Shown here one piece after another: positions 31,464-43,452 of a DNA stretch of 64,000 nucleotides. A program made the translations under genes and the position numbers. The notes beneath the pieces were generated by a model. It was not told the origin of the DNA and did not search any database. It was given only the letters and a program-made list of their open reading frames with translations. How positions within the stretch are numbered: the stretch's first letter is position 1; each line of letters begins with the position of its first letter. The stretch lies in NCBI RefSeq assembly GCF_013122565.1, contig NZ_CP053258.1, one strand, 5' to 3'. This DNA is from Escherichia coli. GTDB lineage: Bacteria; Pseudomonadota; Gammaproteobacteria; Enterobacterales; Enterobacteriaceae.

Positions 31464-31895
31464 TTACGATTTCAACTGGTAATCCAGCGTAATTTCCGCT
31501 TTCAGTACCTGAGAGACCGGGCATCCTGCTTTTGCTTTCTGGATGATGCCGTCAAAGGTAGAGGCATCAATACCCGGCACCGCAATTTCACTCTTCAGTG
31601 CGATTTTCGTAATCGCAAAACCGGCATCCACTTTATCCAGCGACACATCGGCGGTGGTATCAATCGATGTTGGCGTGAATCCTGCTTCTCCCAGCATTAA
31701 TGAAAGCGCCATTGAGAAACATGCGGCATGTGCTGCGCCAATCAGTTCTTCAGGGTTGGTTCCTTTTTCGCCTTCAAAACGCGTGTTAAATCCATACGGC
31801 TGTTGGTTCAGCACGCCACTCTCGGTGGATACTGTTCCCTTCCCGCGTTTGATATCGCCTTCCCAGTGTGCCTGACCTTTCTTATGGATTGTCAT
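31464..31895 (-). CDS. osmC: Osmotically inducible peroxiredoxin OsmC, 143 aa
   Basis: Full-length match to OsmC (MTIHKKGQAHWEGDIKRGKGTVSTESG...). Confidence 0.96.
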   Translation of the reverse strand: MTIHKKGQAHWEGDIKRGKGTVSTESGVLNQQPYGFNTRFEGEKGTNPEELIGAAHAACFSMALSLMLGEAGFTPTSIDTTADVSLDKVDAGFAITKIALKSEIAVPGIDASTFDGIIQKAKAGCPVSQVLKAEITLDYQLKS

Positions 31896-32240
31896 TATTG
31901 CTCTCCTGTGGGCTTAAAAAGGAAATTATAGACTACGTGAGAAACAGCACGAGGATAAGCAGGATATTCCGAATAAAATCCGGCAGAAAATATTACTTCT
32001 GCACTTAAATTAAATTTCCACAATAGATAACCGGGAATATATATCTCAAGAGATATTGCATCAATATCAATCAACTCACCACAATAATAATACCTATCAA
32101 TATCATGGGGTTAAAATATAAAAATCATCAACCAGGACTAATCTTAACAACGAAGCGGCAAATATTTGCCATGCTGAATGTGCTTTATAAATCTGCGATC
32201 CGTAGCAGACACCATAAATACACAGACACGGAGAATCACT

Positions 32241-32456
32241 ATGTTTACTTATTATCAGGCAGAAAATTCAACAGCAGAACCCGCTCTGGTTAATGCCATT
32301 GAGCAAGGCCTTCGGGCAGAGCACGGTGTTGTCACTGAAGATGACATTCTCATGGAGCTGACCAAATGGGTGGAAGCTTCTGATAACGACATCCTCAGTG
32401 ATATCTACCAGCAAACGATCAATTATGTGGTCAGTGGCCAGCACCCTACGCTTTAA
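32241..32456 (+). CDS. bdm: Biofilm-dependent modulation protein Bdm, 71 aa
   Basis: ATG at 32241 (track ORF extended upstream); MFTYYQAENSTAEPALVNAIEQ... Confidence 0.88.
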   Translation: MFTYYQAENSTAEPALVNAIEQGLRAEHGVVTEDDILMELTKWVEASDNDILSDIYQQTINYVVSGQHPTL

Positions 32457-32557
32457 GGTGCTATGCTTGATCGGCAACCTAATTTAGGGGTTTAGCACGT
32501 GTTTCTTCGCTACGGCGATGTTGTCCTTAAAACTAGCAACAGGATTGAGGAGTTAAA

Positions 32558-32695
32558 ATGAAATCGAACCGTCAGGCACGTCATATTCTTGGACTGGACC
32601 ATAAAATATCTAACCAGCGCAAAATAGTTACCGAAGGTGACAAATCCAGCGTGGTAAATAACCCAACCGGCAGAAAACGCCCCGCTGAAAAGTAA
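32558..32695 (+). CDS. sra: Stationary-phase ribosome-associated protein Sra (S22), 45 aa
   Basis: Below the ORF-track cutoff; read from DNA: RBS gaggag then ATG at 32558, [48 protein letters not shown] at 32693. Confidence 0.88.
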
Positions 32696-32726
32696 TTCAT
32701 AACCATCAGTCCTCAATGACGATTAA

Positions 32727-32760
32727 ACACCATTGCCTGCGCAATGGTGTTTTTGTTTTT
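32727..32760 (+). terminator. Strong rho-independent terminator after bdm-sra
   Basis: 10-bp perfect stem acaccattgc / ctgc / gcaatggtgt followed by ttttgttttt. Confidence 0.85.
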
Positions 32761-32851
32761 ATCTGCTTTATACTTGGGGCCGACGCCCTGGCGGTAAAGC
32801 AAAGACAATAAAAGCCCCCCAGGGATGGATATTCAAAAAAGAGTGAGTGAC

Positions 32852-34549
32852 ATGGAACCAAAAACAAAAAAACAGCGTTCGCTTTATATCCCTTACGCTG
32901 GCCCTGTACTGCTGGAATTTCCGTTGTTGAATAAAGGCAGTGCCTTCAGCATGGAAGAACGCCGTAACTTCAACCTGCTGGGGTTACTGCCGGAAGTGGT
33001 CGAAACCATCGAAGAACAAGCGGAACGAGCATGGATCCAGTATCAGGGATTCAAAACCGAAATCGACAAGCACATCTACCTACGTAACATCCAGGACACC
33101 AACGAAACCCTCTTCTACCGTCTGGTAAACAATCATCTTGATGAGATGATGCCTGTTATTTATACCCCAACCGTCGGCGCAGCCTGTGAGCGTTTTTCTG
33201 AGATCTACCGCCGTTCACGCGGCGTGTTTATCTCTTATCAGAACCGCCACAATATGGACGATATTCTGCAAAACGTGCCGAACCATAATATTAAAGTGAT
33301 TGTGGTGACTGACGGTGAACGTATTCTGGGGCTTGGTGACCAGGGCATCGGCGGGATGGGCATTCCGATCGGTAAACTGTCGCTCTATACCGCCTGTGGC
33401 GGCATCAGCCCGGCGTATACCCTTCCGGTGGTGCTGGATGTCGGGACGAATAACCAACAGCTGCTTAACGATCCGCTGTATATGGGCTGGCGTAATCCGC
33501 GTATCACTGACGATGAATACTATGAATTCATTGATGAATTTATCCAGGCGGTGAAGCAACGCTGGCCGGACGTGCTGTTGCAGTTTGAAGACTTCGCTCA
33601 AAAAAATGCGATGCCGTTACTTAACCGCTATCGCAATGAAATTTGTTCTTTTAACGATGACATTCAGGGCACTGCGGCGGTAACAGTCGGCACACTGATC
33701 GCAGCAAGCCGCGCGGCAGGTGGTCAGTTAAGCGAGAAAAAAATCGTCTTCCTTGGCGCAGGTTCAGCGGGATGTGGCATTGCCGAAATGATCATCGCCC
33801 AGACCCAGCGCGAAGGATTAAGCGAGGAAGCAGCACGGCAGAAAGTCTTTATGGTCGATCGCTTTGGCCTGCTGACTGACAAGATGCCGAACCTGCTGCC
33901 TTTCCAGACCAAACTGGTGCAGAAGCGCGAAAACCTCAGTGACTGGGATACCGACAGCGATGTGCTGTCACTGCTGGATGTGGTGCGCAATGTAAAACCA
34001 GATATTCTGATTGGCGTCTCAGGACAGACCGGGCTGTTTACGGAAGAGATCATCCGTGAGATGCATAAACACTGTCCGCGTCCGATCGTGATGCCGCTGT
34101 CTAACCCGACGTCACGCGTGGAAGCCACACCGCAGGACATTATCGCCTGGACCGAAGGTAATGCGCTGGTCGCCACGGGCAGTCCGTTTAATCCAGTGGT
34201 ATGGAAAGATAAAATCTACCCTATCGCCCAGTGTAACAACGCCTTTATTTTCCCGGGCATCGGGCTGGGTGTTATTGCTTCCGGCGCGTCACGTATCACC
34301 GATGAGATGCTGATGTCAGCAAGTGAAACGCTTGCTCAGTATTCGCCGCTGGTGCTGAACGGCGAAGGTCTGGTACTACCGGAACTGAAAGATATTCAGA
34401 AAGTCTCCCGCGCAATTGCGTTTGCGGTTGGCAAAATGGCGCAGCAGCAAGGCGTGGCGGTCAAAACGTCTGCTGAAGCTTTGCAACAAGCCATTGACGA
34501 TAATTTCTGGCAAGCCGAATACCGCGACTACCGCCGAACCTCAATCTAA
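32852..34549 (+). CDS. maeA: NAD-dependent malic enzyme, 565 aa
   Basis: ATG at 32852 (track ORF extended 9 codons); malic enzyme family, full length. Confidence 0.96.
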
Positions 34550-36122: not shown

Positions 36123-36175
36123 AAAAATGGAACTTTATAAAGCGCCATTTAGAACTGATGACAAACGCAACATTG

Positions 36176-36275
36176 CCTGATGCGCTACGCTTATCAGGCC
36201 TACATGTTCACTGCAATCTATTGTATTTGAAGGGTTTGTAGGCCGGATAAGGCGTTCACGCCGCATCCGGCATGA
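36176..36275. repeat. REP (repetitive extragenic palindromic) elements
   Basis: gcctgatgcgctacgcttatcaggcctac and gccggataaggcgttcacgccgcatccggca, canonical E. coli REP units. Confidence 0.85.
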
Positions 36276-36350
36276 ACAAAGCCTACGTTGTCTACAATAT
36301 GAAAATGACGCCTTTTACAGCGCCATTTTCAGCTTAAAGTTCAAAAGAGA

Positions 36351-37893: not shown

Positions 37894-40800
37894 TTACGCC
37901 TTCTCGATGTTGACTAAGAACGCTTTATATTCCGGCGTTTGCGAGTTTGCATCACCGACATTCGGCGTCAGAGTGTTAGCGATATAACCTTTACGCGCGA
38001 CACCCTCAAAGCCCCAGTGGATCGGAATACCCACCGTTTCAACCTGCTGACCATTTACATTCAGCGGTTTCAGACGGCGCGTTACCACCGCCACCGCGCG
38101 GATAAAGCCACGCTTGCTTGAGACAGTGACACGATCGCCATTATTAATGCCTTTCGCCGCCGCCAGCGTTTCGCTGATTTCCACAAACTGTTCCGGCTGA
38201 GCAATTGCGTTGAGCAACGCGTGCTTGGTCCAGGTGTGGAAGTGCTCGGTCAGACGATAGGTCGTACCCACATACGGGAACTGCTCTTTTTTACCCATCC
38301 GCAGCGCGTCTTGTTCATACAGACGAACGACCGGGTTAGACACCACGTTCGGATGCAGCGGGTTAGTGCCCAGCGGCGTTTCAATCGGCTCGTAGTGTTC
38401 CGGGAACGGACCTTCCGCCATTTTGTTGATGGCAAACAGGCGTCCCATCCCTTCCGGCTGCATGATAAACGGCCCGGTTGGCGTACCCGGTGCGGCATTG
38501 CCGAAGTCCGGAATATCGTTACCCGTCCACTTGCTGCCGTTCCACTGGATCAGCATCCGTTTCGGATCCCACGGTTTACCGTTGATATCCGCCGAAGCAC
38601 GGTTGTAGAGTACGCGACGGTTGAGCGGCCACGCCCAGGCCCATCCCAGCGTATTCCCCAGACCGGACGGGTCGGAGTTATCGCGGTTAGCCATCTGGTT
38701 GCCCTGCTCTGTCCAGCTACCGGTGTAGATCCAGCAAGAAGATGCGGTTGTACCGTCATCACGCAGATGCGCAAAGCTACTCAGCAACTGACCTTTCTTC
38801 GCAATCAGCACGCCATTTGCGTCATAGAGATCTTCCAGCGCATAGCCGTTGTTCTCTTTTGCCACTTCGTCAGATTGCGGTTCGTGCGGCTGCTTGTAGT
38901 TCCAGCTCATCTTCATCAGCGGTTCTACGCCTTTACCACCTTCGGCCTGGTACAGCTCGCGCAGATGATGGTAGATACCCGCCAGAATTTCGCCGTCGTT
39001 ACGCGCTTCGCCCGGCGCGTCCTGACCTTTCCAGTGCCACTGCAACCAGCGACCGGAGTTAGCGATAGAACCATCTTCTTCGGCAAAGCAGGTCGAAGGC
39101 AGACGGAATACTTCAGTCTGAATAGACGCCGGATCGACATCGTTCGACTCGCCGTGGTTCTGCCAGAAGGTAGAGGTTTCAGTCACCAGCGGATCGATAA
39201 CCACCATGTACTTCAGCTTGCTCAGGCAGCTCACCACTTTGTTTTTGTCCGGGAAGGACGCAACCGGGTTAAAGCCCTGGCAGAAATAACCGGTGACTTT
39301 GCCTTCGTCCATCATGTTGAAATACTTGATGACGTCGTAGGTCTGGTCCCACTTCGGCAGCCAGTCATAGCCCCAGTTGTTCTCTTTCTGCGCGGCATCG
39401 CCATAGAAAGATTTCATCAGGCTAACGAAGAACTTCGGATAGTTGCTCCAGTAGTTCACCTGATCAGCCAGCGTCGCTTTCGGCGTGTTCGCTTCCAGAT
39501 ACGACTGCAAATCAACCTGTTTTTCTGACGGCAGCGTCAGATAACCTGGCAGGCTGGTAGAGAGCAGGCCTAAGTCAGTCAGGCCCTGAATGTTGGAGTG
39601 ACCACGCAATGCGTTCACGCCGCCACCGGCCATACCCATGTTACCGAGCAGCAACTGGATCATCGCCATAGTACGGATGTTCTGCGCACCCACGGTGTGC
39701 TGCGTCCAGCCCAGCGCGTACAGGAAGGTGGTTGTGCGATCCGGTGCGCTGGTGGAGGCCAGCACTTCACACACTTTCAGGAAGTCGGCTTTTGGCGTAC
39801 CGCAGATGTTTTCAACGACGTCCGGCGTGTAGCGGGAAACGTGCGCTTTCAGCAGGTTCCACACACAGCGCGGATGAGTCAGTGTTTCATCGCGTTTCGC
39901 ATAGCCGTTTTCATCGAACTGATAGTTCCAGGACGATTTATCGTATTGCCGTTTTTCAGCGTCGTAGCCGCTGAACAGACCGTCTTCGAAAGCAAAATCA
40001 TCACGCACCAGCAGGCTGGCGTTGGTGTAATGCTTAACATATTCGGCGTTGATTTTGTTGTTTTCGATCAGGTAGCGCAAAACGCCAGACAGGAACGTAA
40101 TGTCCGTACCGGAACGAATAGGTGCGTAAATATCCGCCACAGAAGCGGTACGCGTAAAACGGGGATCGACAACGATCAGGGTTGCATCGTTGTTGTTTTT
40201 CGCTTCCATCGCCCAGCGGAAACCGACGGGATGCGCTTCCGCAGCGTTACCGCCCATTACCATTACGACGTTAGCGTTTTTGATATCCACCCAGTGGTTG
40301 GTCATCGCACCGCGACCAAATGTTGGAGCAAGACTTGCTACCGTTGGTCCGTGTCAGACGCGCGCCTGGTTGTCTACCGCCAGCATCCCGAGGGAGCGGG
40401 CAAATTTCTGGGTCAGCATCCCGGTTTCGTTGCTGGCACCGGAGGCACACAGCATACCGGTAGAAAGCCAACGGTTTACCGTTACGCCCTGCTCGTTCTT
40501 TTCAATAAAGTTAGCGTCACGGTCAGCTTTCATCAGCTTCGCAATACGGGTGAATGCTTCTTCCCAGCTAATGCGCTGCCATTTGTCAGAACCTGGCGCA
40601 CGATATTCCGGGTAGCGCAGACGGTTTTCGCTGTTGACGTAATCCAGCAAACCGGCCCCTTTCGGACACAGCGCACCACGGCTTACCGGATGATCCGGGT
40701 CACCTTCAATGTGATAAATCGCTTCTCTGGCGTTTTTCGCGCCATCACCCAGGCTATACATCAATAGCCCGCAACCTACGGAACAGTATGTGCAGGTGTT

Positions 40801-42313: not shown

Positions 42314-43414
42314 ATGAAATTAAAAATAGTTGCGGTGGTTGTAACTGGTTTGTTAGCTGCGAACGTAGCACACGCTGCCGAAGTCTATAACAAGGATGGT
42401 AATAAACTCGACCTTTATGGCAAGGTTACCGCTCTACGTTATTTTACTGATGATAAGCGTGACGATGGTGATAAAACTTATGCCCGTCTCGGCTTTAAAG
42501 GAGAAACGCAAATCAATGATCAAATAGTTGGTTTTGGTCACTGGGAATATGATTTTAAAGGCTATAACGATGAAGCCAACGGCTCGCGCGGCAACAAGAC
42601 CCGTCTGGCCTATGCAGGTTTAAAAATTAGTGATTTTGGCTCTCTGGACTATGGTCGTAACTACGGTGTCGGCTATGACATTGGTTCATGGACCGATATG
42701 TTGCCAGAATTTGGTGGCGATACCTGGAGTCAGAAAGATGTCTTCATGACATACCGTACCACCGGTGTAGCAACCTATCGCAACTACGATTTCTTTGGCT
42801 TAATTGAAGGGCTGAACTTTGCCGCGCAATATCAAGGCAAAAATGAACGTACTGACAACAGTCATCTTTATGGTGCTGACTACACGCGCGCCAACGGTGA
42901 CGGTTTCGGTATCTCCTCAACTTATGTTTATGATGGCTTTGGTATCGGTGCGGTATATACCAAATCTGATCGGACAAATGCGCAGGAAAGAGCCGCTGCT
43001 AATCCTCTCAATGCCTCCGGTAAGAATGCAGAACTGTGGGCTACAGGTATAAAATATGGTGCCAACAACATCTACTTTGCAGCTAATTACGCTGAAACAT
43101 TAAACATGACCACCTATGGCGATGGTTATATCTCGAACAAAGCACAAAGTTTTGAAGTGGTGGCGCAATATCAATTCGACTTCGGCTTGCGCCCATCACT
43201 CGCTTACCTGAAATCGAAAGGCAGAGATCTGGGCCGCTACGGCGACCAGGACATGATTGAGTATATCGACGTTGGTGCGACGTATTTCTTCAACAAAAAT
43301 ATGTCGACCTATGTTGATTATAAAATCAACCTGATTGATGAAAGCGATTTTACCCGTGCCGTAGATATTCGCACCGATAACATCGTCGCTACGGGCATTA
43401 CCTATCAGTTCTAA
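42314..43414 (+). CDS. Intact OmpC/OmpD-family general porin, 366 aa (yddL position)
   Basis: Signal peptide ...[20 protein letters not shown]; porin hallmarks (PEFGGDT, C-terminal ...TYQF); adjacent to yddG as Salmonella ompD is. Confidence 0.88.
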
Positions 43415-43427
43415 CATCCTCTCCTGA

Positions 43428-43452
43428 CCAGCCCTTCTCTGGGCTGGTTTTT
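43428..43452 (+). terminator. Rho-independent terminator after the porin gene
   Basis: ccagccc / ttctct / gggctgg followed by ttttt. Confidence 0.8.

Follow-up and report, generated by a model that had tools for sequence, protein, structure and literature searches.

The 45-codon open reading frame between bdm and maeA in the window (the whole 64,000-nucleotide stretch of Escherichia coli DNA that was analysed) is, with very little room for doubt, sra, a core gene of E. coli whose product is a basic peptide of 45 residues that attaches to the 30S ribosomal subunit and builds up in stationary phase. It is an ordinary, already annotated gene and presents nothing new biologically; studies characterising sra go back to 2001.

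Read directly from the sequence, the frame runs uninterrupted from an ATG at 32558 to a TAA at 32693–32695. The coordinates and translation agree letter for letter with those of a preliminary description of the window, and re-reading revealed no frameshift, one of the two faults that description had named as fatal to the call. The GAGGAG Shine-Dalgarno (SD) sequence that it had reported as the ribosome-binding site is also present, and the SD takes the form GAGGAG or AAGGAG across all five genera compared. The peptide is strongly basic in composition (11 Lys/Arg against 4 Asp/Glu) and its proposed match to Sra was borne out by an exact match over all 45 residues to the b1480 protein of E. coli K-12 MG1655 and by family scores far above the cut-offs, both for Pfam PF08136 (SRA_like, 108.2 bits, cut-off 25, covering profile positions 1–46 of 46) and for the NCBIfam equivalog model (74.5 bits, cut-off 35). 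The RefSeq annotation under the matching region of the nearest genomes reads bdm, sra, maeA in that order and the ORF upstream of sra scores as BDM, which places sra downstream of bdm as first described. Only the statement that the ORF track had missed the gene needs to be narrowed: sra is absent from the length-filtered ORF list because its 45 aa fall below the 60-aa cut-off of that list, but the genome annotation has it. Ribosome profiling, proposed at the outset as a check, is available as a published estimate of synthesis, which stands at 15,792 copies per cell (PMC10502375, table 1). At the level of the species, the 801 bp around sra (window 32100–32900) were found by megablast in 5412 of 5426 complete E. 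coli genomes. The features of the locus are collected in Table 1.

Table 1. Features at and around sra, with positions counted from the first nucleotide of the window.
Feature	Position	Strand	Description or basis
osmC, 143-aa ORF	31464–31895	−	Family-model scans
bdm coding sequence, 71 aa	32241–32456	+	Pfam BDM, 175 bits; NCBIfam NF008515 equivalog, 175.1 bits; RefSeq
Candidate sigma-S-type extended −10 element, GCTATGCTTGA	32460–32470	+	One mismatch to KCTAYRCTTAA; in the bdm–sra spacer
Nearly invariant leader segment with possible SD-pairing helix	32524–32551	+	7 bp, UCCUUAA / UUGAGGA
Shine-Dalgarno sequence GAGGAG	32547–32552	+	5 nt upstream of the sra ATG; read directly
sra coding sequence	32558–32695	+	45 codons plus TAA; ORF call, family models, K-12 identity, RefSeq
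Rho-independent terminator, expected to end the bdm–sra transcripts	32725–32762	+	12-bp perfect stem, CUGC loop, then UUGUUUUUAU

Sixty-six homologues of Sra were retrieved in a protein search; all but one carry PF08136, and those named to organism all belong to the Enterobacteriaceae (Escherichia, Shigella, Salmonella, Citrobacter, and Intestinirhabdus). This narrow taxonomic range agrees with the recent origin proposed in a 2025 preprint, in which the appearance of Sra was dated within the Enterobacteriaceae and de novo birth was suggested. The homologues share 64–87% identity with the window peptide. Across nine of them, 19 residues are invariant (M1–H9, L11, G12, I17–Q20, K22, G38, R39, and R41), and the MKSNRQARH N-terminus, the ISNQ motif, and the GR(K/H)R motif are unchanged in the PF08136 proteins of Salmonella, Citrobacter, Intestinirhabdus, and E. 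albertii, where the leader and terminator are kept as well and maeA lies downstream. Most homologues outside Escherichia differ in the C-terminal tail, which is about 2 residues longer (..RRADSQK). One E. coli record, represented by a single contig, encodes a 58-aa Sra (P0007) with a 13-residue insertion in the middle of the peptide (LGAFILPALIRAG), which may reflect a small insertion, a duplication, or an error of assembly.

What is known of the function of Sra comes from K-12 and B strains in the literature. The protein was found as ‘protein D’, a tight binder of the 30S subunit first named S22/RpsV (PMC10502375), and is described as a 45-aa basic protein with a pI of 11.04 (PMC6904343). A strain with sra deleted has lower antibiotic tolerance and persistence (PMC8407246). 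Sra appears on ribosomes and later leaves them together with RMF, being lost after a few days, and a functional link between the two has been suggested from these shared dynamics (PMC9959377). RMF (ribosome modulation factor, 55 aa) resembles Sra in being a small, basic, stationary-phase peptide that binds the 30S subunit, with arrival at and exit from the ribosome in common (PMC9959377), but belongs to an unrelated sequence family and acts by forming 100S dimers with HPF. Taken at its best-supported guess, Sra is most likely an accessory ribosome-hibernation or protection factor.

The strongest competing reading takes Sra for a true structural component of the ribosome (S22/RpsV) and not for a factor of hibernation or stress. 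Its tight binding to the 30S subunit and its original place among the 54 r-proteins (PMC6904343; PMC10502375) speak for this, as does native mass spectrometry of E. coli B ribosomes, in which SRA was among the most abundant 30S species (PMC13220301). A structural role is nevertheless unlikely, given a sub-stoichiometric occupancy of about 0.1 copies per ribosome in growing cells, rising to about 0.4 in stationary phase (as cited in PMC8407246), dispensability (PMC10502375, PMC8407246), induction in stationary phase followed by loss from ribosomes with Rmf (PMC9959377), and the restriction of named homologues to the Enterobacteriaceae with the recent, possibly de novo, origin proposed for them. 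Sra is also missing from deposited ribosome structures, as phmmer searches of the 45-mer against all PDB chains gave no match at E = 0.01 or at E = 10. An AlphaFold2 model built from a 9-sequence alignment was of low confidence (mean pLDDT, 64.7; pTM, 0.27) with a short helix at residues 4–11 only, a result compatible with folding of the peptide upon its target. As an accessory factor, Sra would probably be disordered until it docks on 16S rRNA, and may possibly assist RMF.

Selection on the frame was assessed from Nei-Gojobori counts over 41 gap-free codons in six sequences. For sra, dN/dS was 0.09–0.24 in most between-genus pairs, with dS as high as 0.9, and 0.20–0.49 in pairs that included the most distant locus (metagenomic contig L006), substitution counts which indicate that the sra reading frame is under purifying selection across genera. 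That the 45 codons form a chance frame in a non-coding bdm–maeA spacer, and that the hairpin serves as the bdm terminator only, is vanishingly improbable: the frame is short, and 60 ORFs of 20–60 codons occur in the six frames of 3.5 kb, but such a reading is refuted by curated family models passed at 3–4 times the cut-offs, by the between-genus constraint, by conservation of the start codon, the SD, and the 19 invariant residues, by RefSeq annotation of the gene, and by detection of Sra on ribosomes by mass spectrometry in several studies (PMC9959377, PMC13220301, PMC8407246). Of similarly negligible probability is an antisense product (minus strand, 32510–32716, 68 aa, or 32581–32706, 41 aa) with the sense frame as its by-product, for while frame −1 is free of stops over the sra span in five of the six sequences compared, a stop breaks it in C. 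amalonaticus, the annotated RefSeq records have no minus-strand gene there, and the substitutions are distributed as constraint on the sense frame would predict. Where a sense frame does without TTA, CTA, and TCA codons, frame −1 is expected to stay open (the codon-mirror effect), and the antisense ORFs were rejected as mirror-frame artefacts and are effectively refuted as the product.

Compared with K-12 MG1655, the 801-bp region has 99% DNA identity. The sra ORF carries two substitutions, both synonymous (ATA/ATT, Ile; GTG/GTA, Val), and outside the ORF the leader differs at one position and the sequence beyond the terminator at two, none of these substitutions having an obvious consequence. 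The K-12 gene (b1480; formerly RpsV, 30S protein S22, or protein D) has the same SD and terminator and the same neighbours (osmC, bdm, maeA, and adhP). Gene order at the locus agrees with both K-12 and strain PapM-32-1, and the whole window is collinear with K-12 positions 1,524,006–1,588,505 in reverse orientation.

For synteny, the loci encoding four of the homologues were fetched (Salmonella, Intestinirhabdus, C. amalonaticus, and contig L006). The order osmC (minus strand), bdm, sra, maeA holds in Salmonella and Intestinirhabdus, and in Citrobacter amalonaticus and on L006 bdm is absent and sra still lies directly upstream of maeA. Several irregularities were seen in the neighbours. On L006 (2910–4507) maeA is split into four called genes beside an intact sra, which suggests frameshifts, assembly errors, or a pseudogene; on L005 (1421–1873) osmC is split into two, again with sra intact. 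In the window itself the start codon of maeA is ambiguous between 32825 and 32852, the ATG of the ORF list at 32825 (plus strand) giving 574 aa and the 565-aa RefSeq form starting at the equivalent of 32852 (MEPKTKK...). Just past the sra terminator, at 32764–32774 (plus strand), lies TGCTTTATACT, kept as ATGCTTTATACT in Salmonella, Intestinirhabdus, and C. amalonaticus, which probably represents the −10 region of a promoter for maeA. The same 3′ region has a second predicted hairpin, at about 32764–32799.

The anatomy of the locus is consistent with two routes of transcription into sra. A terminator scan of the plus strand over 32457–32557 found no terminator-like site between bdm and sra, so that transcripts from the bdm promoter should run into sra, and sra would be transcribed in part by such read-through. 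The second route would start within the 100-nt spacer, from a promoter belonging to sra itself, a proposal that draws on the retention of the spacer by sra in lineages that have lost bdm. By either route, all bdm–sra transcripts would be expected to end at the hairpin ahead of maeA. A promoter in the spacer is likely because deletion of sra in K-12 was partially complemented by a fragment with primers at window 32456–32695 (spacer plus ORF), which according to its authors contains the native promoter (PMC8407246). The same study, citing earlier work, names RpoS, ppGpp, cAMP, FIS, and IHF as stimulating sra transcription (PMC8407246). A sigma-70 scan of the region predicted no plus-strand promoter near bdm or sra, and its overall count equalled chance. 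The spacer does hold the sigma-S-type extended −10 element of Table 1. Matches of the KCTAYRCTTAA type are no commoner than chance in the window (6 found, 6.6 expected), but the element was retained as a candidate because it is conserved, its TGCTAWGCT core being kept in Salmonella, in Intestinirhabdus, and on L006, which is without bdm (four of five genera).

Downstream of sra, the terminator of the preliminary description was found again with a slightly larger stem than the 10-bp perfect stem first given for it (32727–32760). The stem, at 32725–32752, pairs AAACACCATTGC with GCAATGGTGTTT over 12 perfect base pairs (5 of them G-C) around a 4-nt CTGC loop, and is followed by the tail TTGTTTTTAT, with the T-tract reaching 32762. 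Alone the hairpin has a folding energy of −16.2 kcal/mol, and the 80 nt 3′ of the sra stop are far more stable than shuffled sequence (z = −4.75), with none of 200 shuffles folding as well. Four terminator-like sites were found in a scan of the region against 0.8 expected by chance, and that of sra is the longest and the only one on the plus strand. On the minus strand no T-tract follows the stem, and the terminator would therefore work in one direction only. When the hairpin was aligned across five genera, 96.7% of cells were paired, compared with 33–68% when the partner columns were slid. Covariation is weak, with only five sequences: there is one compensatory pair (U-A to C-G), nine pairs never vary and are thus uninformative, and the covariation statistic was reached by 55 of 500 shuffles. 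Even so, the stem, the position of the loop, and the T-tract are clearly conserved. An Rfam scan at gathering thresholds placed no family over the sra locus; sub-threshold matches to a Streptococcus sRNA and to microRNA precursors were rejected as chance hairpin matches to the terminator.

Upstream of the start codon, about 35 nt are almost invariant across genera whose synonymous sites have diverged heavily. Within this leader, 32524–32530 could pair with 32545–32551 in a candidate helix that would pair with the SD, for which 35 of 35 cells are paired in five genera. Two of its pairs change on one side only and none on both, the shuffle control was uninformative, and the full leader does not exceed shuffled sequence in stability (z = −0.48). 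A published RNAfold analysis placed part of the sra SD in a structured region, and cadaverine has been reported to stimulate an sra translational fusion (PMC10917681). A tentative and rather doubtful extension of these observations is that sra is an autonomous unit with its own sigma-S promoter, that its translation is gated by opening of the SD helix, and that co-transcription with bdm is a later addition. Cadaverine would be a possible trigger of helix opening, proposed because of its reported effect on the fusion.

Elsewhere in the window, the sole match at gathering level in Rfam is a SECIS_3 selenocysteine insertion element on the minus strand at 40301–40359 (84.3 bits; gathering score, 63), which by collinearity with K-12 is placed inside fdnG (formate dehydrogenase-N alpha subunit) and is expected and ordinary there. 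At 42314–46159 (plus strand) the window has an intact 366-aa Porin_1 ORF (444.8 bits) together with two ORFs that encode leucine-rich repeats (421 and 417 aa), where K-12 has only the short yddL, yddK, and yddJ pseudogene; 42598–44135 and 44462–45096 had no match within the K-12 region compared. By this comparison, K-12 appears to carry a degraded version of the cluster. At 57303–61145, 3.8 kb are without counterpart in the corresponding K-12 region, which has a 6.4-kb RhsE / ydcD / yncI / ydcC (H-repeat) element in their place. This stretch, to judge from the comparison a strain-variable island, holds a GNAT-like ORF of 108 aa and five minus-strand ORFs (250, 186, 140, 110, and 90 aa) without a Pfam match. 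At about 36133–36328, two segments of the BLAST comparison with K-12 share 196 nt of the window and have offsets 179 nt apart; the fdnI–yddM spacer of K-12 is therefore longer by about 179 bases, a difference that looks like a change in copy number of a tandem or REP-like repeat.

For annotation, the locus illustrates how small genes that are real and well known drop out of view under a 60-aa ORF cut-off, and how a start codon, an SD, and a terminator read from the DNA recover such genes correctly. For the biology of Sra, the real question is where and how the peptide acts on the 30S subunit, a question general to the field, as no deposited structure matches Sra. The doubtful reading of sra as an autonomous unit gated at its SD would, if true, apply to all of the Enterobacteriaceae that carry sra and not to this window alone.
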